Assembly (NCBI GenBank): GCA_007571325.1
Contig: RKRQ01000098.1
Location: forward strand, 729 to 64,728
Direction of reading: 5' to 3'
Source of the DNA: Candidatus Dadabacteria bacterium
GTDB lineage: Bacteria > Desulfobacterota_D > UBA1144 > Nemesobacterales > Nemesobacteraceae
DNA: 64,000 bases
The notes under the pieces are model-generated. The model was given only the letters and a program-made list of their open reading frames with translations. It made no database searches and was not told where the DNA came from. The position numbers and the translations under genes are program-made. The first letter of the stretch is position 1. Each line of letters opens with the position of its first letter. Below are positions 48,141 to 59,120 of the stretch, piece after piece.

Positions 48141-49018
48141 AGGGTTATCTCCGTTCCTATTCCCGAATTGGTAAGAAGCTCCAGTATCAGAGCCCTTTTT
48201 GTCGTTCCGTTTATTATATGAACCTTGTCTACTCCTTCTTCTAGGGCATCAAGCGCGCACATCACCTTCGGGATCATTCCACTGTTTATAGTTTCGTTCC
48301 TGATAAGTCTTTCACACTCTTTTTTTGTTACGGAGGATATGAGATTTCCTTTCTTATCGAGTATGCCGTCCACGTTGGTCAACAGTATGAGCTTTGATGC
48401 GCCAAGCGCTCCAGCTATTTTTCCCGCCACCTGGTCCGCGTTTATGTTGTAGGTGGTTCCATCCTCCCCTGAACCTATAGGAGCTATAATCGGAATTACT
48501 TCTTTACTCTCAAGAACCTTTATTATCTCAGGGTTTATTTCAAGGATTTCCCCGACATATCCTAGGTCGGAGTCCTCAGGGATATTTATGTTGTGCTCGG
48601 AAGCAAATTTATGCACGTTGAATTTTTTGGCTTTTATGAGATTTCCTTCTTTGCCCGAAAGCCCTACCGCTTCCATGTTGTGGCGGTTTATCGACGTTAT
48701 AATTTGCTGGTTTATCTTTCCGACAAGAACCATCTCTACCACTTCCATTACACGCTCTTCAGTGATGCGGAGTCCGGCTATGAAGTCTGATTTTATTCCC
48801 AGCAAATCAAGATGCTCTTGGATCTGGGGTCCACCACCGTGTACGACCACCGGTTTTATTCCGACATACTTCATCAATACAAGATCGCGCACGAAATTCG
48901 ATAGATCCTCCCTGCCGATGCTCCCCCCGTATTTGACCACTACGGTTTTACCGTGAAACATCTCTATGTATGGAAGCGCTTCAACCAGTATTTCGGCCCT
49001 TATTGTCGAGTCCTTCAT
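48137..49018 (-). CDS. argB: acetylglutamate kinase
   Basis: VVKYGGS, VVHGGGPQI and NINADQVAG motifs. ATG at 49018 has AAGGAG 7 nt upstream and is preferred over the track's 49057. 4-nt overlap with argD. Confidence 0.9.
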   Translation of the reverse strand: MKDSTIRAEILVEALPYIEMFHGKTVVVKYGGSIGREDLSNFVRDLVLMKYVGIKPVVVHGGGPQIQEHLDLLGIKSDFIAGLRITEERVMEVVEMVLVGKINQQIITSINRHNMEAVGLSGKEGNLIKAKKFNVHKFASEHNINIPEDSDLGYVGEILEINPEIIKVLESKEVIPIIAPIGSGEDGTTYNINADQVAGKIAGALGASKLILLTNVDGILDKKGNLISSVTKKECERLIRNETINSGMIPKVMCALDALEEGVDKVHIINGTTKRALILELLTNSGIGTEITL

Positions 49019-49128
49019 AAAAAACTCCTTTGCATAAAAACGAACATTATATAGCAACCGAGGTTTTTATTACAACACCTCAGGAATAATCATATACCAG
49101 AATCCAGAATTGCGGGTGGAGAGGGGGC

Positions 49129-50010
49129 TTACAAGAGGCCCAAGGCTCGTTTTTCCTTTAGCGAGGTTTTCTTTATTCTTACTTGGAACCGCAGTTCGGC
49201 TTCAGCTTCGTCCCCGTAGAAACTTCCTGAAACGGGGGCGACAAGTTCATTGGTCGCTCCGCTTGCGACCGCAACATGGCTGTCTGCGACTGCTAAGCCT
49301 GATGAAGGGTCATATCCCCTCCATCCTCCGCCCGGGATATAGACTTCGACCCAGGCGTGAAGTTCATTCTCTCTCTTTTTTTTACTGAATGCATAGCCGC
49401 TTACGTGCCTACACGCAAGTCCGGTGGAGCGACATACACTCGCAAAAAGTTCCACAAGATCCCTGCAGGAGCCTCTTTTTTCTCTGAGAGTTTTTTCAGG
49501 CGTCCACGGGGCGCCATGCTTTCTTGCTACATGGGAGAAATTCTTGTGTATGTGGTTGCAGAGTGAAAGAATGAAGTCTAAGGTTTTTCCTTGAGTTTGA
49601 GAGAGAATAGTCTCACGAAGCTTTGAAACCTCAAGAGCGGTTTTTTTGCTTACGCTCAGATAAGGACTCAGAGCGATTTGCTGCTCCGGCGGATATCGCA
49701 TCGGTAGATATAGAAACCTTATGTCTGAGACTATGAAGTCAAAGGGATTTTTCCTAAGTGTTTCAACGACGCAGCGTGTATCAATCACCAAACGGTTGAA
49801 TTCGCCTGAGAACCAAAGGGTGACTGTTGTATTTCCGTCAAGGTCTGAGTTTACGGTTCTTCCGGCTTCTGGAGGGTCGGTCTCAAGAGAGAACATGTGG
49901 GTTATCTGTTGTCCCACGTTTTGTTTGGGGTAAATCCTCACGATGTGAGGAGCGAGGACGATTTTTTTCCCGTACGAGTAGGTCGTATTGTGATCTATGC
50001 TAAGGAACAC
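49129..50010 (-). CDS. transglutaminase-like protein (Anbu cassette gene 4)
   Basis: 293 aa. N-terminal bacterial transglutaminase-N-like region plus a core with Cys (GSCRDL), His (HAWVEVY) and Asp (GYDPS). The GTG start overlaps the upstream gene by 11 nt. Confidence 0.85.
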   Translation of the reverse strand: MFLSIDHNTTYSYGKKIVLAPHIVRIYPKQNVGQQITHMFSLETDPPEAGRTVNSDLDGNTTVTLWFSGEFNRLVIDTRCVVETLRKNPFDFIVSDIRFLYLPMRYPPEQQIALSPYLSVSKKTALEVSKLRETILSQTQGKTLDFILSLCNHIHKNFSHVARKHGAPWTPEKTLREKRGSCRDLVELFASVCRSTGLACRHVSGYAFSKKKRENELHAWVEVYIPGGGWRGYDPSSGLAVADSHVAVASGATNELVAPVSGSFYGDEAEAELRFQVRIKKTSLKEKRALGLL

Positions 50011-50737
50011 TTTTAGGGTTTCCGTTAAGAACTTTCTTTACCCATTCGGCGGGAAGTTCCTCAGCCGATTTCCTGAGTCTCTCCTGCCACCACTCGGATA
50101 TGTCGGCCAGTTCGTTTTCGCTAAAACTATACTGCTCAAGGCAAAATGAATTAGCCTTGTAGATGATCAAGTCTATCGGGAAATCGACGTCTATGGCATT
50201 TATGCGGCTGGAATCAAACGCTAGGTAAGCGATGCGAAGCGCGGTGTCGAGGCTCGTGTCGTAGGTAAGGGTTCTTTTTATAATCGGTTTTCCATATTTT
50301 GACTCGCCTATTATGACGTAGGGAGACGTGACCCCAACATTGATCCAGTTTGCCTGAGGATATACGAGGAAAAGCTGGGGTTCAGGGTCGTTTTCAAACT
50401 GTCCTCCTATTATGGAGTATATGTTAAATGAAAATCCAGATTCAGAAAGCGCCTGTCCATCTTCTTTTTTTACTTTGCGAAGTTGTTTTGAGAAAAGGTT
50501 CACGGCCTTGTAGAGACGGTCGAGGGATTCTCCAGAGTGCTCAAGCGCCTCATCAAGATAGGTGATCGTCTTGTCCCTAGCGGAGCGAAGGCCCGAAGTC
50601 ATAAGAAAAAAAGAATTGTTCCCGACCCTGTGAACGGTGACCTTCTTTGCCCGTATAGATTCGTTTCCCGTTATTATGAGATTATCGGCAAGCCCAATTA
50701 TCCCTTCTTTGAGCCTCATTCCAATACAGAAAGTCAT
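50000..50737 (-). CDS. proteasome-type Ntn peptidase, Anbu family (Anbu cassette gene 3)
   Basis: 245 aa starting MTFCIGMRLKEGIIGLAD (Thr right after Met1). Proteasome-beta-like pattern ...RAKKV...FLMTSGLRS. The conserved neighbours (ATP-grasp, alpha-E, transglutaminase) support the call. Confidence 0.8.
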   Translation of the reverse strand: MTFCIGMRLKEGIIGLADNLIITGNESIRAKKVTVHRVGNNSFFLMTSGLRSARDKTITYLDEALEHSGESLDRLYKAVNLFSKQLRKVKKEDGQALSESGFSFNIYSIIGGQFENDPEPQLFLVYPQANWINVGVTSPYVIIGESKYGKPIIKRTLTYDTSLDTALRIAYLAFDSSRINAIDVDFPIDLIIYKANSFCLEQYSFSENELADISEWWQERLRKSAEELPAEWVKKVLNGNPKSVP

Positions 50738-50752
50738 TTCGTTCTTCCCTAA

Positions 50753-51733
50753 TTAAATATCGTCAAAGTCTCGAAGGCTTTTGCCGCCTACTTGATAACT
50801 GAAGTAATCGTCGTATATACAGTTTCCTATCTCGTTTATGTACGACTGGAACCGGTTTAGGTATTCGTGCATACCGTGCTGTATTATCTCCTCAACGCTT
50901 ATAAACCGAAGGTCTGATAGAAGTCTTCCCATCTTTTTCTCAGTTTCGTTGTTGTACGTACCTGAAGGGCTGTTTGATATACAGTGAAGCGACTCGTCAG
51001 CGCGCTTGATGCAGTAGATTATAGAACGGGGAAACTGATTGTCTAGTATGAGAAAATTAAGCACGTTTTCTATGGATATCTGTTGATGCTTCGCCTTGTA
51101 GGTCTCAAGAGCATCTGAAGATTTTAGAAGCGATATCCACTGCATATTGTCTATTGAAGTTCCCACAAGCTCTGCTTTGGGAAGCAGTGTGTAATACTTT
51201 ACGTCTAGTGTCCTTGATGTGTTATCTGCCCGTTCCATTTGTTTTCCGAGTTCTGAGAAATGCCATGCTTCTCCATGCGATATGGTGACGTACCCGGAAC
51301 CGTGAAAAAGAAGACTTTGCACTTTCGCCACTTCACAGAACTTGCCGGGGTTGTCAAGCAGTTTTTTCTTGGCCTCTTCGCTGTTTAGCCTGTGATAGAA
51401 ACGGTTTATAAGAAGCCACATCTCAGAGGAGATTATCTCCCTGATGGAGCTTGCGTTCTCTCGGGCTTTGTTAACGCAGGATATAATGGAGTTTGAATTA
51501 TTGTGGTCAAGCACCATGAAGTTTATGACGTTCTCCCGGGTTACGCTGTCATACAGGCTCCTAAAAAGCTCCAAGTCTCCTGTAACCCTTACTATGGGGT
51601 CCCACTCCTGCTCCAGTGAGTCGTGTATGTCTATTGCGAGGCCGAGGTTAACGCTTATGAGCCTTGCTGTGTTTCCTGCACGCTCGGCGTAGCGGCTCAT
51701 CCAGTATATCGATTCTGCGACGCGGCTTAGAAT
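50753..51733 (-). CDS. alpha-E domain protein (Anbu cassette gene 2), probable ATT start
   Basis: The track starts at the ATG at 51700 (MSRYAERAGNTARL). The frame is open upstream and encodes (I)LSRVAESIYW, the conserved family N-terminus. ATT at 51733-31 lies 6 nt after GGAGG (51744-40), and an in-frame TAA sits at 51739-37. Confidence 0.75.
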   Translation of the reverse strand: MLSRVAESIYWMSRYAERAGNTARLISVNLGLAIDIHDSLEQEWDPIVRVTGDLELFRSLYDSVTRENVINFMVLDHNNSNSIISCVNKARENASSIREIISSEMWLLINRFYHRLNSEEAKKKLLDNPGKFCEVAKVQSLLFHGSGYVTISHGEAWHFSELGKQMERADNTSRTLDVKYYTLLPKAELVGTSIDNMQWISLLKSSDALETYKAKHQQISIENVLNFLILDNQFPRSIIYCIKRADESLHCISNSPSGTYNNETEKKMGRLLSDLRFISVEEIIQHGMHEYLNRFQSYINEIGNCIYDDYFSYQVGGKSLRDFDDI

Positions 51734-53199
51734 TTTTTACCTCCATTCCCGCCGTTGTTCTTTTCCGGGGCAAGCACCCATGTGTCCTTGCTTCCTCCTC
51801 CCTGGGAAGAATTAACTATCATTGAACCTTTGCGAAGAGCCACTCTCGTTAACCCTCCCGGCAGAACGAATATATCCTTTCCGTAGAGAATAAAGGGTCT
51901 TAAATCGACGTGGCGCCCCTCAAAGTGGTCGTCTACTATCACGGGAGCCCGGGATAGGGACATTGTCTTCTGGGCTATGTAGTTTCTGGGATTTGCTTTT
52001 ATGTTCTTTTTGGCTTGAGACAGTTCTTCTTTCGTTGCCTTGGGTCCGAACACTATTCCATATCCTCCGGATTCGTTCGCAGGTTTTACCACCAGCTTCT
52101 CAATATTGTCAAGCACGTATTTTCTCGCCTCATCCTCCTCGCAGATATACGTAGGCACGTTTGATACCACAGGGTCTTCCCCTAGATAATACTTTATTAT
52201 CTTCTCAACGTAGGCGTATATTATCTTGTCGTCGGCAACTCCTCCTCCAGGGGCGTTTGCTATGGCTACGTTGCCTGCCTTGTAAGCATTGAAAAGCCCC
52301 GGAACTCCAAGCACCGAATCCGGCCGGAACACCTGTGGGTCAAGGAAGTTGTCATCTATTCTTCTGTATATGACATCCACTTTTTCAAGTCCCTTCGTTG
52401 TTTTTAGATGAACGAAGTTATCAACCACAACAAGGTCCCTTCCCTCAACGAGTTCTATCCCCATTTCCTTTGCCAAAAACGAGTGTTCAAAGTAAGCCGA
52501 GTTGTAAATCCCGGGGGTGAGAAGCACAACCTTTGGGTTTGCGCTTCTGTCAGACAGAAGATACTGGAGCGTGTCTAGCAGATGGAGCCCGTAATCGCTT
52601 ATGGGCATTATCTTCACTGCGTCGAATACTTTTGGGAAGGTTCGCTTTAGAAGCTCGCGATTTTCAAGCACGTAGGATACTCCCGAAGGAGAGCGTAGAT
52701 TATCCTCAAGGATGTAAAAATTGCCGTCAGAGTGTCTTATAAGATCCGTTCCCGTTATATGGCACCAGATTTTTCTCGGTGGAGAAAAACCGATGCAATC
52801 AAGACGAAACTCCCTGCTTGAGAGAATTAGTTCCTTGGGTACAACCTTGTCTCTTAGGATCTTACGGTCGTTGTATATATCGTCTATAAAGAGATTCAGC
52901 GCGTGGATTCTCTGCTTGAGGCCCCTCTCAATCTTCTCCCAGTCTTCGGCAGACACTATTCTAGGGATTATGTCGAATGGGAAAATGTTTTCCTCTGAAC
53001 CTTTTTTCTCCGAGTAAAGCGTGAAGGTTACTCCCATATCGAACAGGTTTATTTCAGCTGCTTTCTGCCGTTCGATAAGTTCTCCGTCAGAAAGACTTTC
53101 TATCCTGTCGGTGAGAAAACGGGTCCACTCGTACGGGGTGGCACTGTCCTTGAAAACTTCGTCGTAAAATCCTTCCGTATCATAATTTTTGAAATCCAT
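51727..53199 (-). CDS. circularly permuted type-2 ATP-grasp protein (Anbu cassette gene 1)
   Basis: 490 aa with NAPGGGVADDK, KPANESGGYG and the C-terminal PGGLTRVALRKGSMIVNSSQGGGSKDTWVL hallmark, as I recall for this family (COG2308-type). Confidence 0.85.
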   Translation of the reverse strand: MDFKNYDTEGFYDEVFKDSATPYEWTRFLTDRIESLSDGELIERQKAAEINLFDMGVTFTLYSEKKGSEENIFPFDIIPRIVSAEDWEKIERGLKQRIHALNLFIDDIYNDRKILRDKVVPKELILSSREFRLDCIGFSPPRKIWCHITGTDLIRHSDGNFYILEDNLRSPSGVSYVLENRELLKRTFPKVFDAVKIMPISDYGLHLLDTLQYLLSDRSANPKVVLLTPGIYNSAYFEHSFLAKEMGIELVEGRDLVVVDNFVHLKTTKGLEKVDVIYRRIDDNFLDPQVFRPDSVLGVPGLFNAYKAGNVAIANAPGGGVADDKIIYAYVEKIIKYYLGEDPVVSNVPTYICEEDEARKYVLDNIEKLVVKPANESGGYGIVFGPKATKEELSQAKKNIKANPRNYIAQKTMSLSRAPVIVDDHFEGRHVDLRPFILYGKDIFVLPGGLTRVALRKGSMIVNSSQGGGSKDTWVLAPEKNNGGNGGKKF

Positions 53200-53525
53200 T
53201 TTTGCTTCAAGGGCCTTTTTCGAAAAATTTAACTAAAAGACTAAACCATGACAAAGAAAAGTCGGGAGTTTTTGCCTGATTTTTTAATTTGATGCATTGA
53301 AGAATTGGTATGAAATTATGTAGGTCCAAACACACCGATTAATTCCGAGTATATATACGACTGAAATCTTAGGGCAGAAAGAAATTTCATGGTTTTGATA
53401 TGAACATATTTTTGGATTTCCAGATGCTGCGTGTGCCTAGCCTGGATTTCTCACAGAGAGTATAGAAACTGCTGTATGCGTCCAGGCTTTAGGAGAGGCT
53501 TTATTATGTAGAATAAATCATCTTT

Positions 53526-54854
53526 TTACAGTATGTACCTGCTTAAGTCTCGGTCTTTAACGATATCTGCTATTTTTTCATCTACATAGTTTTTATCTAT
53601 AACGAAATTTTTCTCCTTCATGTCAGGAGCGTTAAAGGAAATTTCATCAAGCAGTTTCTCAAGAACTGTGTGAAGTCTTCTTGCTCCTATGTTTTCGGTG
53701 GAGCCGTTAACCTCGGCCGCAGTCTCGGCTATTTTTTCTATTGCCTCGTTGCTGAACACAAGATTTATACCCTCGGTTTTCATAAGTGCGGTGTATTGTT
53801 TTATAAGAGCGTTTTTGGGTTCGGTAAGGATACGTATGAAGTCATCTTTTGTAAGCGCCTCAAGCTCAACCCTTATGGGAAAACGTCCTTGGAGTTCGGG
53901 TATGAGGTCTGAAGGCTTTGAAACGTGAAACGCCCCGGCTCCAATAAAAAGTATGTGATCGGTTCTCACCATCCCGTGCTTTGTGGTTACGCTGCTTCCC
54001 TCGATTATAGGGAGAAGATCTCTCTGCACCCCTTCTCTTGAAACATCAGGACCGGAGACGCTGTTTTTTCCGGCAACCTTATCTATCTCATCTATAAATA
54101 TTATCCCGGAGTTCTCAGTTCTCTCCAAGGCAAGCTGGGTAACCTTGTCTACGTCTATAAGTTTTCGGGCTTCCTCTTCGGTAAGAATCTCTATGGCTTC
54201 TGGGACCTTAACCTTTCTTATCTTAGATTTTTTTGGCATGAGGTTTCCGATCATTTCTGAGATTCCAGGATCCATTTCCTCTACTCCAGCCTGACTGAAT
54301 ACCTGTATGGGGAGGTTCCTCGCGGTTATCTCTATTTCGACTTCTCTTTCGTCAAGTTTCCCGTCCCAAAGAAGTTTTCTCATCTTTTTCTTCGTCTCGC
54401 TCATATCCGTTTCCGCCTCGGCTTCTGGACGAGTAGGAACGAGCAGGTCAATCAGTTTGTCTTCGGCAAGCTCTCTTGCTCTAGTGTTAACGGAAAGGGT
54501 TTCCTCCTCGGTAACCATGTTTATCGCTATTTCCGTAAGATCCCGTATCATCGATTCAACGTCCCTACCCACATAGCCAACCTCCGTAAATTTTGACGCC
54601 TCAACTTTTACAAAGGGCGCTTGGGCAAGTTTCGCCAGCCGTCTCGCTATTTCAGTTTTGCCCACCCCCGTAGGTCCCATCATAAGTATGTTCTTGGGAG
54701 AAATCTCGTCTCGAAGTTCAGCCGATACCTTTTGTCTTCTCCACCTGTTTCTGAGCGCTACACCAACGGCCCTTTTGGCCATGTTCTGTCCAACTATGTA
54801 CTTGTCAAGCTCCGATACTATTTCTCTGGGAGTAAGATAGGACTCTTTAGACAT
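53526..54854 (-). CDS. hslU: ATP-dependent protease ATPase subunit HslU
   Basis: 442 aa with [41 protein letters not shown] and an I-domain. Confidence 0.97.
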
Positions 54855-55391
54855 TTACGCTATCTCCTCTATGGATATGTGGTTGTTTGTGTAAATGCAT
54901 ATCCCCGCGGCGATCTCGAGAGAATGCTTTACTATTTCCGTTGCGCAAAGTTCGGAATGCTTAGCAAGAGCTAAGGCGGCCGCTTGGGCAAAGGGACCAC
55001 CGGAACCTATGGCTATAACGCTTTCATCGGGTTCTATTATGTCTCCGCTTCCCGAGATTATAAGCATGGTTTCAGAATTTGCGACTATGAGCAGAGCCTC
55101 AAGTCTTCTTAGTATCCTGTCAGTTCTCCATTCCTTTGCCAGTTCAACAGCGGCGCGTTGCAAGTTTCCCCGGAATTCTTCGAGCTTCCCCTCGAACTTG
55201 TCAAAAAGCGTCATGGCATCTGCGGTTGAGCCCGCAAATCCAGCGCAGATCTTTCCGCCGTACATTTTTCTTATCTTCTTTGCGTTATGTTTTACCGCGG
55301 TTGTTCCCATTGTTACTTGGCCGTCGCCCCCGAGCGCCACTCTACCGTCTTTTTTGACGCAGAGTATTGTGGTTCCATGAAACTGACTCAT
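54855..55391 (-). CDS. hslV: ATP-dependent protease peptidase subunit HslV (CodW-like N-terminus)
   Basis: 178 aa: [12 protein letters not shown]...GDGQVT...GFAGSTADA...GSGG. It is immediately contiguous with hslU. Confidence 0.95.
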
Positions 55392-55415: not shown

Positions 55416-56288
55416 CTAAGCATTGGGGTGGGTTTTATCGTAGACTTCCATTATCCTCTCAATCGAAAGATGTGTATATCTCTGGGTAGTCGAGAGGCTT
55501 GAGTGGCCAAGCATTTCCTGTATAGCCCGAAGGTCGGCACCACCCGCGAGAAGGTGAGTGGCGAATGAGTGCCTGAGCACATGGGGACTTACGTTTTTTG
55601 ATATACCGGAGACAAGGCCGTATTTTTTAATTATCCGCGCTAGACTCCTTGTGGTTATCCCGTTTCCTCTTGAATTTAAGAATATATGGTTGGATGTAGG
55701 TTTAAATTCCTCTCTAATTTCCAGATACTTTTCTAAGGCGGAAAGAGCCTTTGATCCAACGGGAATGATCCTTTCCTTGTTTCCCTTTCCTCGAATCCTT
55801 ATTATCGCCTCCCCCATGTTCAAGTCACCTAAGGTGGCTCCCGCCAGTTCGCTTACCCGAAGGCCGCTTGAGTAAAGCAACTCGAGAATTGCTCTGTCGC
55901 GAATATTAAGAGGATTTTTCTCCGTATTTATGTCCACGAGGTTAAACACCTCATCCACACTTAGAAATACCGGAAGATGTTTTTCCTTTTTCGGAGTGCG
56001 TACGAGTTTTGCCGGATTTTGCGTCAGGAAATCTATCCTTACCAGAAATGAAAAAAAAGACCTTATGGTAGATATTTTTCTCTCAACTGAAGCAGGTGAG
56101 TTTTTTCCGTAAAGAGTGGATACGTATGCGTTTATGGTTGAAACGTTTACCTCTTCAATCTTTTTTCCTTCTTTTAGTAGGAAATCGCGAAAATTCTCAA
56201 GATCACCCCTATAGGCTTTTACCGTGTGTTCCGAATAGTTTCTTTCATCGGAAAGATGCTCTATGAAGCTTTCAAACAATTGGTTCAT
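55416..56288 (-). CDS. xerC: tyrosine recombinase XerC
   Basis: 290 aa with a SAM-like N-domain and the catalytic R..HxLRHSFATHLL..GADLR..LGH...TTQRYTH. The position upstream of hslVU is the classic xerC context; XerD cannot be fully excluded. Confidence 0.8.
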   Translation of the reverse strand: MNQLFESFIEHLSDERNYSEHTVKAYRGDLENFRDFLLKEGKKIEEVNVSTINAYVSTLYGKNSPASVERKISTIRSFFSFLVRIDFLTQNPAKLVRTPKKEKHLPVFLSVDEVFNLVDINTEKNPLNIRDRAILELLYSSGLRVSELAGATLGDLNMGEAIIRIRGKGNKERIIPVGSKALSALEKYLEIREEFKPTSNHIFLNSRGNGITTRSLARIIKKYGLVSGISKNVSPHVLRHSFATHLLAGGADLRAIQEMLGHSSLSTTQRYTHLSIERIMEVYDKTHPNA

Positions 56289-56414: not shown

Positions 56415-57557
56415 TTACAGATTAACAAGAATTTCTTCGTAGCCAGAAACCATTCTGTCCTTGGAAAAGTATCGTGAACGTTTTTTTGCTTCAGTTGCAA
56501 TGTCAGTCCTGAGTTTTTCGTCTTTAATAAGCCTTAAAATTCCAGAGGCCATTTTCTGGGGATCAGCAACTGGAACCAAGAGTCCACTTTTTTCATTCTC
56601 TATTATTTCATTAGGTCCATAATCACAGTCCGTTGAAATCACCGGCATTCCGAGAGACATAGCCTCAAGCAACACCAATGAAAAACCTTCTGAAATAGAG
56701 GAAACAACAAAAATATCACCATGGCGCATATACGCATATGGCACTTTTTCCCCAACCATGTCCACTTTTTCACTTATTCCAAGCGATTTTGCTTTCAGGA
56801 GCAACTTATTTTTCAGCTTGCCGTCACCAACTATTATTAAACGTGCGTTGGTTGTTTTATTCACGATTTTGAGTGCTTCAAGAAGATATGAGTAGCCTTT
56901 CAGTATATTCATACGTCCCGTAGCAATGAGAACAGGGGAATTATCATTAAAGTATTTGTGAGAGCGGGAAAAACTATCTGCCATTTTGGATTTTTCTACA
57001 ATTTCCTCAATATCTATGCCGTTATGAACCGTTTTAACTTCATTTATCTGGAAAAGTTCTGCGGCTGCTTTTGAAACCCCTTTTGAAACTCCAACTACTA
57101 CATCTGCAAGACTGTAAGTTTTTTTCCTATAAAAAAGAACAAAAGACTTGGGACAAATTCGCCATCGTTTCGGCAAACCATCTGATAGTTGAATAATTGG
57201 GTTGCCAGATTGTACCAAAACAACCTTAGTTCCCAAAAGCCGTCCAGCAATTGCTGATACGGGTTTTGTAATCCAAGTCATGGAACAAAGCACGTCAGGT
57301 TTCCATTTGGAAATTGCTCTTGCTACCTCATAATTTCCTCTAAGGAAAAAGGGTTTGAGGTAATTGCTCTGTGCAGAAATAACTTCTATCTTAGGGTTAA
57401 CATCTTCTATTCTTGCACCTTTCAGGTTTTTGAGATCAAAGACTAAAATTGCTACTGCGTGCCCTTTCTCACAAAGTCCATTTGCAAGGTCTACTATATG
57501 TTTCTCAGCCCCCCCTGCAAGAGCTAAATTCTTGGTTACAAACAATATTCGTTTCAT
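56415..57557 (-). CDS. glycosyltransferase family 4 (GT-B, GT1-type C-domain)
   Basis: About 380 aa from MKRILFVTKNLALAGGAEKH, with C-terminal SEGFSLVLLEAMSLGMPVIST (EX7E-type). The track start at 57608 adds 17 residues. Confidence 0.85.
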   Translation of the reverse strand: MKRILFVTKNLALAGGAEKHIVDLANGLCEKGHAVAILVFDLKNLKGARIEDVNPKIEVISAQSNYLKPFFLRGNYEVARAISKWKPDVLCSMTWITKPVSAIAGRLLGTKVVLVQSGNPIIQLSDGLPKRWRICPKSFVLFYRKKTYSLADVVVGVSKGVSKAAAELFQINEVKTVHNGIDIEEIVEKSKMADSFSRSHKYFNDNSPVLIATGRMNILKGYSYLLEALKIVNKTTNARLIIVGDGKLKNKLLLKAKSLGISEKVDMVGEKVPYAYMRHGDIFVVSSISEGFSLVLLEAMSLGMPVISTDCDYGPNEIIENEKSGLLVPVADPQKMASGILRLIKDEKLRTDIATEAKKRSRYFSKDRMVSGYEEILVNL

Positions 57558-57809
57558 TCTCTTTTTTATACTGATTGTTTTGAGGGTACGTAGTGTAACA
57601 CGAACCATATTTGATTTCTATTCAGTAGCATCTCAAGTAATTTTCCAAATTTTTTATGAATTCTCTTTTATCAGTGAGAAAATGGTTTCCGCTCAACCGG
57701 GTAAGGTTTATGTTTATATTTATGGAAATCTGTTTAAAATTGCGAGATTGTATTTAAGAAAACCAAAAATCTGTTTTAACACATAGAACTAGTTTCTAGA
57801 CTTTGAGCC

Positions 57810-59120
57810 ATGCGAGAGTTAAAAGCGGAAAAAAAAGAATTTATGAAAAATGTATCTTGGCTTGTTGTAGCAAAGTCTATTCCATCGTTCGCTAACATTG
57901 TTGAGATGATTATTCTGGCAAGAGTTTTAGGTGTTGAAATGTTTGGCCTCATGACTTTAGTAATAGCCTATGTGAGAGTTGTGAGTTCTTTAGTGGATTT
58001 TAGGGTATGGGAGTCTGTTGTGAGATATGTTGGCGAGTTTCTTGAGAAAAAGGAACTAGACAAGGCTTTGTCAATGATAAAGTTTTCCTACATCGTTGAT
58101 GCTGTAACAGGTCTGCTTGCCTTTGGAGTCTGTATCTTACTTGCAAGTGTAGCTAACGATATATTCATAAAATCTGCTGACGGCGTCAGCCTTGTTCTTA
58201 TTTTTTCCTTTACTCTTGTAGTTGCGAGCGTAAATACTACCTCGGAAGCACTTTTCAGGGTCTTTGACAAGTTCAAGGTGATAGTTTTCATCCAGTTGGC
58301 AAAATCAGTTTTTAAGCTGGGTTCTATAATTTTGGCTCTGTATCTTGGTTATGGAATAAAGGGCGTATTGGTTGCTTATGTGGCCGTTTCATTCTTTGAA
58401 TTTCTATTGACTCAAGCAGTTGTAAATTGGGTTCTTAGGGAAAAAGGTCTTCATAGCTGGTTCTCATCGAAAGTGATACTTCTCTCTAGCAGAATGAGAG
58501 AGATAACTTGGTTTTTAGTTAATACGAGTTTTAATGCCGCGTTGACAATTGCCAGCGAGGGCAGAGTAGCTGTTTTGATTCTGGGTTATTTTTTCGGAAG
58601 TGGTGCTGCAGGTCTTTACAAGATTGCAAGAGCTGTGATCAAGGTTATTTATAGAATCATAGATCCCTTGGACGAGGCTATTTTCCCGAAACTCGTTAGT
58701 TTTTCAACATCAAATCTTTACTACAGATTCGCTGAGATACTTAAATTTTCTGTAAAAAACCTACTTAAACTAATAATCCCTGTCTTGATAATAGTGTTTC
58801 TGTTCACGGAACGTTTAATAGAACTAATTTTTGGCGGTCAATACATACCGGCTTCAGATACCATGAGGGTGCTTGCCGTAGCTGTTTTGTTTACAGGTGG
58901 GGCATTCTGGCTTACGCCTATGTTACTTGCAATTGGAAAACCGGGACTGAGAACTGCAGTCAGTATATTCAAGGCACTAACCTACCTAGCTTTGTTGCTT
59001 TTGCTAATTCCAGAGCACTCATATTTTGGAGCCGGTATTGCTTATTTGATCGTTGAATTTGTACATTTTTTAGCGGCCGTTTACTTAGCACACAAGTTTC
59101 ACCGTACATATCTAGGATAA
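57810..59120 (+). CDS. polysaccharide/O-unit flippase (MOP/Wzx-like)
   Basis: 436 aa, about 12 TM helices, typical polysaccharide-biosynthesis-protein pattern. Divergent from the GT4 gene. Alternative ATG at 57843. Confidence 0.75.
   Translation: MRELKAEKKEFMKNVSWLVVAKSIPSFANIVEMIILARVLGVEMFGLMTLVIAYVRVVSSLVDFRVWESVVRYVGEFLEKKELDKALSMIKFSYIVDAVTGLLAFGVCILLASVANDIFIKSADGVSLVLIFSFTLVVASVNTTSEALFRVFDKFKVIVFIQLAKSVFKLGSIILALYLGYGIKGVLVAYVAVSFFEFLLTQAVVNWVLREKGLHSWFSSKVILLSSRMREITWFLVNTSFNAALTIASEGRVAVLILGYFFGSGAAGLYKIARAVIKVIYRIIDPLDEAIFPKLVSFSTSNLYYRFAEILKFSVKNLLKLIIPVLIIVFLFTERLIELIFGGQYIPASDTMRVLAVAVLFTGGAFWLTPMLLAIGKPGLRTAVSIFKALTYLALLLLLIPEHSYFGAGIAYLIVEFVHFLAAVYLAHKFHRTYLG

Follow-up and report, generated by a model that had tools for sequence, protein, structure and literature searches.

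The window analysed here, a stretch of 64,000 nucleotides (nt) from Candidatus Dadabacteria bacterium (contig RKRQ01000098.1), contains at positions 49129-53199 four minus-strand genes in one orientation, which code, in the direction of reading, for an ATP-grasp protein, an Alpha-E protein, the proteasome-like hydrolase Anbu, and a transglutaminase-like enzyme. Gene 1 (51727-53199, ATG start) encodes a circularly permuted ATP-grasp protein of 490 amino acids (aa), a predicted amide ligase of the COG2308 type. Gene 2, the Alpha-E gene of the COG2307 type, occupies 50753-51733 if it is read from an ATT codon (326 aa), or 50753-51700 if it is read from an ATG (315 aa). Gene 3 (50000-50737, ATG start) encodes the 245-aa Anbu, predicted to be an N-terminal nucleophile (Ntn) hydrolase with catalytic Thr1, and gene 4 (49129-50010, GTG start) encodes a 293-aa transglutaminase-like protein of the COG1305 type with a predicted Cys-His-Asp triad. 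Genes 1 and 2 overlap by 7 nt with the ATT start of the latter, or are 26 nt apart with the ATG start; 15 nt lie between genes 2 and 3; and the start of gene 4 overlaps the stop of gene 3, by 11 nt. The four co-oriented genes, their coordinates and their junctions had been given in a preliminary description of this DNA and were recovered upon recomputation, and all motifs quoted there (MTFCIG, GSCRD, HAWVEVY, YDPS, the ATP-grasp C-terminal pair, and RYAER) are present.

The Anbu operon was described in 2008 (Valas & Bourne 2008) and has since been treated by Fuchs 2017 and Piasecka 2018. Valas & Bourne defined it by Anbu being found together with COG2308, COG2307 and COG1305 proteins in a predicted operon, and at the window locus these three are represented by members of Pfam families PF14403/PF04174, PF04168 and PF01841/PF08379. 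We consider the locus to be, almost certainly, an intact operon belonging to the Anbu-2 subtype (see below); it is a further intact copy of the system, in a phylum outside the 2017 survey. What is noteworthy about it is incremental, namely the Anbu-2 pocket, the swapped gene order, and a conserved AUU/AUC start codon. A literature search found no paper linking Dadabacteria with Anbu.

The Anbu-1 operons of Pseudomonas aeruginosa (PA1733), Yersinia bercovieri and Ralstonia solanacearum (CP025986) contain the same four families, likewise co-oriented and tightly packed. In the Ralstonia operon, however, the order is ATP-grasp, Alpha-E, transglutaminase, Anbu, and Piasecka et al. 2018 list the operon genes in this same order, whereas in the window and in three more distant loci (L033-L035) Anbu precedes transglutaminase. 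The earlier view of the locus as the exact conserved Anbu quartet thus holds for gene content and fails for gene order. The Anbu-1 operons differ from the window also in the AUG start of Alpha-E, as opposed to AUU or AUC in the window clade.

Profile searches assigned three of the four proteins to the families that had been expected of them, and Anbu was recognized by sequence comparison with the PDB and by its predicted fold. The COG numbers expected for the former three (COG2308, COG2307 and COG1305) are the ones used by Valas & Bourne 2008. The product of gene 1 matches PF14403 (CP_ATPgrasp_2) along the whole profile (positions 1-374 of 374, E = 4.5e-164, 546 bits against a cut-off of 32) and PF04174 with E = 2e-142, and its similarity to PDB structure 3N6X, deposited as a 'putative glutathionylspermidine synthase', has E = 1.1e-154. 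The C-terminal motifs PGGLTRVALRKGS (residues 447-459) and VNSSQGGGSKDTWVL (residues 462-476) are in place. Gene 1 is therefore a member of the circularly permuted ATP-grasp family, with predicted ligase activity. The product of gene 4 matches PF01841 (Transglut_core, E = 1.3e-20) and PF08379 (Bact_transglu_N, E = 3.3e-15), both above the cut-offs. Its motifs are GSCRD at 180-184, HAWVEVY at 218-224 and YDPS at 233-236, and in the alignment with PDB structure 3ISR ('putative cysteine protease', E = 1e-9) Cys182, His218 and Asp234 fall on the template triad. None of the four proteins matches any NCBIfam model. None matches any defence model in PADLOC either (E <= 0.001), which rules out a catalogued anti-phage defence system.

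The closest relatives of the window locus (L001-L030) all come from Candidatus Dadabacteria/Thermodesulfobacteriota metagenome-assembled genomes (MAGs) of 1.5-2.4 Mb, and four loci (L033-L036) served as outgroups. The four genes are adjacent in 30 related genomes, and their order is the same in all of the closest loci that cover the region; it is also seen outside the clade, in one MAG of Deltaproteobacteria and one genome of Acidobacteriota. Recurrence in the clade and in two further phyla excludes chance adjacency. Within the clade, identity to the window proteins is 90-96 % for ATP-grasp (86 % in L026, the most distant relative), about 81-90 % for Alpha-E (73-74 % in the most distant relatives), 78-90 % for Anbu, and 61-79 % for transglutaminase. 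The full cassette is under strong purifying selection in these small genomes. The ATP-grasp protein is as conserved as HslU and HslV (87-94 % across the clade), which speaks for a role at the housekeeping level rather than for a dispensable accessory.

A consensus scan placed a putative sigma70-like promoter (TTGTCA, 17 nt, TAAATT) at 53226-53254 on the minus strand, about 26 nt upstream of the ATG of gene 1. A block of about 60 nt upstream of this ATG is conserved in the relatives and reads TTTGTCAT, 16-17 nt, TTAGATT, then GGAG, then ATG, regardless of whether hslU, insertion sequence (IS) elements or other DNA lie beyond it. Since the block is kept whatever lies upstream, the cassette appears to own its promoter. 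Sites resembling the sigma54 pattern (TGGCAC-N5-TTGCW) were not found upstream of the cassette on the coding strand, and their count in the whole window is that expected by chance; in this respect, too, the promoter differs from that of the Anbu-1 operon. A search for a riboswitch or leader RNA upstream of the cassette gave nothing: an Rfam scan of 48900-53700 had no matches with E <= 1, and the predicted folding of the 326-nt leader is no more stable than that of shuffled sequences (z = -0.14). The segment between hslU and the promoter (53261-53525, 265 nt) is unique to the window, with no counterpart in the relatives or elsewhere in the window.

Judging from the junction sizes, the adjacency of the four genes in the clade and in two other phyla, and the promoter block that is kept whatever lies upstream, the operon appears to be one transcription unit, presumably driven by its own sigma70-like promoter. 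The short or overlapping junctions are also what would be expected of translational coupling.

Anbu and its subtype

When the PDB was searched with the window Anbu (phmmer), only Anbu entries were matched, and these were all of the solved ones (5loy, 5lox, 5nyj, 5nyw and 5nyf, with E = 2e-36 to 2.4e-29). The match to the generic Pfam Proteasome family is marginal (23.9 bits against a cut-off of 22.4), and no HslV or proteasome model of NCBIfam was matched; the marginal score casts no doubt on the Anbu assignment. An AlphaFold2 model, built for the monomer on 44 homologues, has a mean predicted local distance difference test score (pLDDT) of 90 and a predicted template modelling score (pTM) of 0.86. 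A Foldseek search with this model returned Anbu chains in the top 31 positions, with template modelling (TM) scores of 0.85-0.90 and root-mean-square deviation of 1.6-2.2 Å over about 237 columns at 24-30 % identity, and proteasome beta subunits ranked after them, with a TM score of about 0.62. The model contains a long C-terminal helix (residues 207-227), which corresponds to helix H5, a published Anbu-specific element with no counterpart in HslV or proteasome beta.

The protein begins with MTFCIG (residues 1-6), so that Thr directly follows Met1 and there is no propeptide. By analogy with Pa-Anbu, removal of Met1 would expose Thr1 as the nucleophile. This Thr (Thr2 in the numbering of the open reading frame, ORF) is conserved in at least 90 % of the 44 homologues, and Asp18 and Lys32 in the same numbering are invariant among them. 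In the window protein, as in nearly all of the homologues, T, D and K occupy the alignment columns equivalent to Thr1, Asp17 and Lys32/33, as the preliminary description had anticipated. Counted from Thr1, the residues are Thr1, Asp17, Lys30 and the equivalent of Gly47. The lack of a propeptide, Thr1 after Met1, Asp17 with the catalytic Lys, and the fold, including its C-terminal helix, are shared with Anbu-1.

The S1 pocket sets the window protein apart. Fuchs et al. 2017 distinguished Anbu-1, found in alpha-, beta- and gamma-proteobacteria, cyanobacteria and actinobacteria, whose S1 residues T20-F30-T48-L52-S55 form an amphiphilic pocket, from Anbu-2, whose pocket is highly basic (I20-A29-R46-R50-T53 in Cytophaga hutchinsonii) and is possibly tuned to cleavage after acidic residues. 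In the window Anbu, these positions are I20-A29-T46-R50-R53, a basic pocket, with a 2-residue deletion at F30 relative to Pa-Anbu. Residues I20, A29 and R50 and the 2-residue shift are as published for Anbu-2. The motif MTSGxRSxR is common to 120 of the 120 closest homologues of the window Anbu and to sequences from Pirellula and Lindowbacteria, and the longer version LMTSGLRSxRDK is shared by the window protein and its homologues in Pirellula and a Deltaproteobacteria MAG; together with the 2-residue deletion, this longer version likewise characterises the 120 best homologues and the planctomycete sequence. Homologues with the motif are 41-62 % identical to the window Anbu (Pirellula, a planctomycete, 42 %; the Deltaproteobacteria MAG 51 %), as opposed to 28-34 % for Anbu-1 proteins (31-34 % for those with structures, 31 % for Pa-Anbu), and the Anbu-2-type homologues are themselves 28-31 % identical to Pa-Anbu. 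The host lineage, moreover, is close to the former delta-proteobacteria, as in Anbu-2, although the list of phyla given in 2017 does not include Dadabacteria.

A point against the assignment is that only three of the five pocket residues are identical to those of C. hutchinsonii, which is known to us from the published list of residues: T46 and R53 here stand against R46 and T53 there. The same T46 and R53 are found in all 120 closest homologues of the window Anbu. On the strength of the basic S1 pattern, the 2-residue deletion, and the closer identity to the Pirellula and Lindowbacteria homologues than to Anbu-1, we assign the window protein to Anbu-2, with the reservation that its pocket departs at two of five positions from the only example published. 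Ring structures of Anbu do exist, as the preliminary description pointed out, yet all of them are of Anbu-1 or of a designed consensus, and Anbu-2, to which the window protein is assigned, is without a solved structure.

A few Anbu-2-type homologues have Ser, rather than Thr, right after Met1 (MSFCLGM; positions 8001-8762 of L035, from Acidobacteriota CP070717, and the proteins P0095, P0096 and P0117), which suggests a variant with Ser1 as the nucleophile. When a plasmid collection was searched for an annotated Anbu-2 locus, only matches at the distance of Anbu-1, with about 30 % identity, were found.

The start codon of the Alpha-E gene

The automatic gene-caller annotation of Alpha-E (P0121) has 315 aa and begins with the ATG at 51700, 11 residues downstream of the ATT codon proposed as the start in the preliminary description. 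From the ATG, the protein matches PF04168 with E = 4.8e-86 and 289.5 bits, and the match begins at profile position 12. From the ATT, with 11 more codons, the match improves to E = 1.5e-94 and 317.5 bits and extends over profile positions 2-294 of 294. In the longer version, the RYAER motif is at residues 14-18, and E17, R18, E167 and R168 are invariant. The AlphaFold2 model of Alpha-E is all-helical, with a pLDDT of 88, and its helix 1 comprises residues 4-33, so that initiation at Met12 would truncate this helix.

The ATT start (51731-51733) overlaps the TAA stop of gene 1 (51727-51729) in the arrangement ATT-C-TAA, which occupies 51727-51733 on the minus strand. A GGAGG Shine-Dalgarno sequence, read directly from the DNA, lies at 51740-51744, 6 nt upstream of the ATT; the distance of 6-8 nt from the AUY codon (where Y is a pyrimidine) is ideal for that codon and not for the internal ATG. 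In the relatives, GGAGG or GGAGA is kept at the same spacing, the start codon is ATC in 29 of the 29 that contain the junction, and the pattern ATY-YTA-AGY, with the TAA of gene 1 embedded in it, is conserved. The outgroup loci L033-L036 have ATG at exactly this codon and read MLSRVAD/N, which indicates that the change from ATG to ATY is derived and has been retained by the clade. An in-frame TAA stands two codons upstream of the ATT in the window, making a canonical start farther upstream impossible there, and in 5 of the 29 relatives a stop is found one codon upstream of the ATC. Across 30 genomes, codons 2-22 vary at 16 third positions, two first positions and no second position, with a single amino-acid difference.

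Read together, these sequence comparisons indicate that the most probable start of Alpha-E is an AUU or AUC codon, conserved throughout the clade and overlapping the ATP-grasp stop, as the preliminary description had proposed for the window, and we think there is a good chance that this codon is a real, selected initiation site. The competing view is that translation begins at the internal ATG (Met12), with the upstream 33 nt preserved as a ribosome standby site or as a relic of the lost ATG. It agrees with the automatic annotation and with the low efficiency of such codons in E. coli, where initiation at AUC or AUU reaches about 1-2 % of the AUG level (with Met still inserted) and the confirmed natural cases are only infC and pcnB, both of them AUU. 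We nevertheless find it improbable: the 11 upstream residues add 28 bits and fill profile positions 2-11, the substitutions in that region are almost exclusively synonymous, the Shine-Dalgarno sequence is positioned for AUY, the modelled helix 1 already begins at residue 4, and the ATG of the outgroups falls on the AUY codon itself. A -1 frameshift fusing ATP-grasp to Alpha-E was also considered and rejected, as the A-run is not conserved (e.g., in L003 and L015) and six genomes, including that of the window, have a stop codon in frame shortly ahead of the AUY codon.

The overlap of the AUY start with the ligase stop suggests that synthesis of Alpha-E may depend on termination-reinitiation, or may be slow in comparison with that of the ligase. 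A more specific possibility, which we consider rather unlikely, is that the AUY codon sets a low ratio of Alpha-E to ligase or makes Alpha-E synthesis responsive to the level of initiation factor 3. If the AUC codon is confirmed, it will be a rare natural AUC start conserved over roughly 30 species; in any case, a conserved AUY start would mean that the present annotations of Alpha-E in the clade are 11 residues short, and it hints at deliberately limited or coupled synthesis.

The fold of Alpha-E is confidently modelled and yet structurally uncharacterised in the PDB as of April 2026: a PDB sequence search found no solved relative, and the best Foldseek match had E = 0.37.

A tentative mechanism and its alternatives

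Several properties of the Anbu operon are known from other species. In Pa-Anbu, Thr1 is a reactive nucleophile to which epoxomicin and MG132 bind (Fuchs 2017), and the ATP-grasp protein of the Yersinia operon frees orthophosphate from ATP (Piasecka 2018). The operon was the most induced gene set in nitrogen-limited P. putida (Valas & Bourne 2008), and in B. cenocepacia the cluster of ATP-grasp, Alpha-E and transglutaminase genes is NtrC/sigma54-dependent. The preliminary description took the substrate, the unfoldase partner and the role of Anbu to be unknown, and the literature agrees: no function had been established as of 2021, and our search found no functional Anbu paper later than that.

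From the chemistry of the domains and this published work, the following scheme may be proposed. The ATP-grasp protein, together with Alpha-E, would convert a carboxylate into an acyl-phosphate at the expense of ATP, and would then form an amide or isopeptide bond on a protein or peptide, perhaps a gamma-glutamyl bond or one of another acidic kind. Anbu, with Thr1 exposed by removal of Met1, would cleave the product of the ligase behind an acidic residue; the two arginines that line its S1 pocket suggest such acidic-P1 cleavage. The Cys-His-Asp transglutaminase-like enzyme would act on the same linkage, by trimming, transfer or deamidation. Overall, the system would couple the turnover of peptides or proteins to their modification, a role that in proteobacteria is tied to nitrogen limitation. 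In this scheme the substrate, the coupling of the enzymes and the acidic-P1 specificity are all inferred, and we offer it as tentative, somewhat more likely to need replacing than to stand as written. The explanation as a whole, in which the identity of the Anbu-2 operon, the AUY start and the mechanism are taken together, seems to us plausible, falling a little short of probable.

A tagging hypothesis for the Anbu operon is cited by Piasecka et al. 2018. Functionally, the operon may be likened to the Pup-proteasome and ubiquitin-like tagging systems, in that each combines an ATP-dependent amide ligase, a hydrolase able to undo or process the bond, and a peptidase of the proteasome family. The likeness is one of functional analogy. 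The Anbu operon encodes no tag protein, no AAA+ unfoldase and no alpha-ring, and no modified protein has ever been reported for it. The Pup ligase PafA, furthermore, is a glutamine-synthetase-like enzyme, as opposed to the ATP-grasp ligase here.

A number of observations weigh against modification-coupled turnover. No Anbu has ever been active as a peptidase or amidase on test substrates, including Z-LLE-AMC, and no stable complex among the proteins of the operon has been detected (Fuchs 2017, Piasecka 2018); Anbu-2 of C. hutchinsonii did not bind proteasome inhibitors (Fuchs 2017). The fold search with Alpha-E yields no functional or mechanistic clue. The link to nitrogen limitation may not transfer to Dadabacteria, given that no sigma54-type site was found upstream of the cassette. 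The unity of the four genes is not universal either. Azospirillum has a solitary Anbu, and in Lindowbacteria (L031) transglutaminase and Anbu are paired with no detectable ATP-grasp or Alpha-E beside them. In L033 (5585-7960; GC content 37 %, Anbu 62 % identical to that of the window) the ATP-grasp gene is frameshifted in an A7 run and the Alpha-E gene contains two in-frame TGA codons, one of them aligned to a conserved Trp, and Anbu and transglutaminase are intact; this may be a case of module-specific decay or of TGA recoding. The solitary Anbu, the Lindowbacteria pair and the pattern of decay in L033 hint that ATP-grasp/Alpha-E and Anbu/transglutaminase are separable modules.

The alternative that survives best, though we still consider it unlikely, is biosynthesis of a small molecule or short peptide, as ascribed to Iyer et al. 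2009 by Fuchs 2017 and Piasecka 2018. Under this alternative, the ligase and Alpha-E would build a peptide-like metabolite, e.g., a gamma-glutamyl or polyamine conjugate, and the function of Anbu and the transglutaminase-like enzyme would be that of amidases in maturation or recycling, not the degradation of proteins. The name under which the closest solved relative of the ligase (3N6X) was deposited is in line with such a role, as are the failure of every Anbu tried to degrade a protein or a standard peptide substrate, and the open, split Anbu ring, which has no closed chamber; Piasecka et al. 2018 add that Ntn hydrolases need not be peptidases. Fuchs et al. 2017, on the other hand, deem peptide synthesis less likely, arguing that the ring of identical active sites, the binding of inhibitors and the diversified S1 pockets favour protein degradation. 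No metabolite has been tied to the operon, and the mycobacterial homologue Rv2567 was negative in one metabolite assay. Two mycobacterial reports were set aside: a preprint on GABA-trehalose, in which Rv2567 and Rv2411c figure only as negative controls, and a paper on the protease Rv2569c, a possible relative of the window transglutaminase, with reported activity that is sensitive to serine-protease inhibitors.

Still less probable is bulk scavenging of nitrogen, which is one of the published hypotheses according to Piasecka et al. 2018. Here Anbu would degrade proteins non-specifically in nitrogen starvation, the transglutaminase-like enzyme would free ammonia, and ATP-grasp and Alpha-E would serve in regulation or salvage. 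The strong induction in nitrogen-limited P. putida and the NtrC dependence in B. cenocepacia speak for it, and the window cassette is directly upstream of argB-argD-argF. That adjacency, however, is interrupted in most relatives by a gene resembling those of TonB receptors; the conserved promoter is sigma70-like, with no site of the sigma54/NtrC type upstream; and a specialised basic S1 pocket disfavours non-specific degradation.

Modification-coupled turnover, then, is the scheme that we retain with the caution stated above. Anbu is the one widespread proteasome relative that has no known substrate, partner or role, and variation that constrains the hypotheses about it is useful: the basic S1 pocket and the order with Anbu before transglutaminase lead toward acidic-P1 or gamma-glutamyl-type substrates and toward the two-module view. 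The window locus by itself does not reveal the function, nor does it make the question more testable, and the organism is uncultured; the practical gain is modest.

The hslVU-arg neighbourhood

Directly upstream of the cassette, on the same minus strand, are hslU (53526-54854), hslV (54855-55391) and xerC (55416-56288); hslU and hslV are both above the equivalog cut-offs. Downstream, argB-argD-argF follow after a gap of 71 nt. HslV, like Anbu, is a Thr1 Ntn hydrolase of the proteasome-like family, and thus two such enzymes are present in the same genome, but the two are easily told apart. HslV scores 275-283 bits on HslV equivalog models, which do not match Anbu; it has a 6-residue propeptide, MSQFHG (its match to TIGR03692 begins at residue 7); and it is paired with the AAA+ ATPase HslU. 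Anbu, in comparison, has a C-terminal region longer by about 65 residues, with an extra helix, and has no known ATPase partner.

The suggestion that HslU is the missing unfoldase of Anbu in Dadabacteria, and that xerC-hslV-hslU and the cassette make up one proteolytic locus, would account for the position of hslU on the same strand directly upstream, at a distance of 326 nt in the window and of only some 60 nt in many relatives, no terminator being recognisable in between, and for a synteny that reaches as far as L033 with its 62 % identical Anbu; it is nonetheless very improbable, as the gap is filled by 1.7-5.8 kb of unrelated DNA in several relatives, among them L005, L007, L011, L019, L021, L022 and L029, no hslVU is found within 7.5 kb in L026 or near the Anbu-2 operons of Deltaproteobacteria and Acidobacteriota (L034 and L035), the cassette retains its own conserved putative promoter, and published work finds Anbu neither associated with any AAA+ ATPase nor co-regulated with HslV. 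The gap in L022 contains transposase-like genes on the opposite strand and a presumed toxin-antitoxin pair. The space between hslU and the cassette appears to behave as an insertion hot spot and not as a functional link. The simpler view, and the way in which the adjacency is best read, is lineage-specific synteny, with the cassette located inside an older hslVU-arg gene block; in Desulfuromonas, hslVU is in one operon with argF (Valas & Bourne 2008).

In most relatives, an ORF of 748 aa (11740-13986 in L001), which by eye resembles TonB-dependent receptors, lies between the transglutaminase gene and argB. In the window, L030 and L033, this ORF is missing and transglutaminase directly precedes argB, which is probably the older arrangement.

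Farther along the window, between 56000 and 64000, the GC content falls from about 0.45 to 0.37-0.41. Two ORFs in this part, as judged from the look of their sequences, resemble a glycosyltransferase (56415-57608) and a membrane protein of the polysaccharide-flippase type (57810-59120), and the segment may be a surface-polysaccharide island of other origin.

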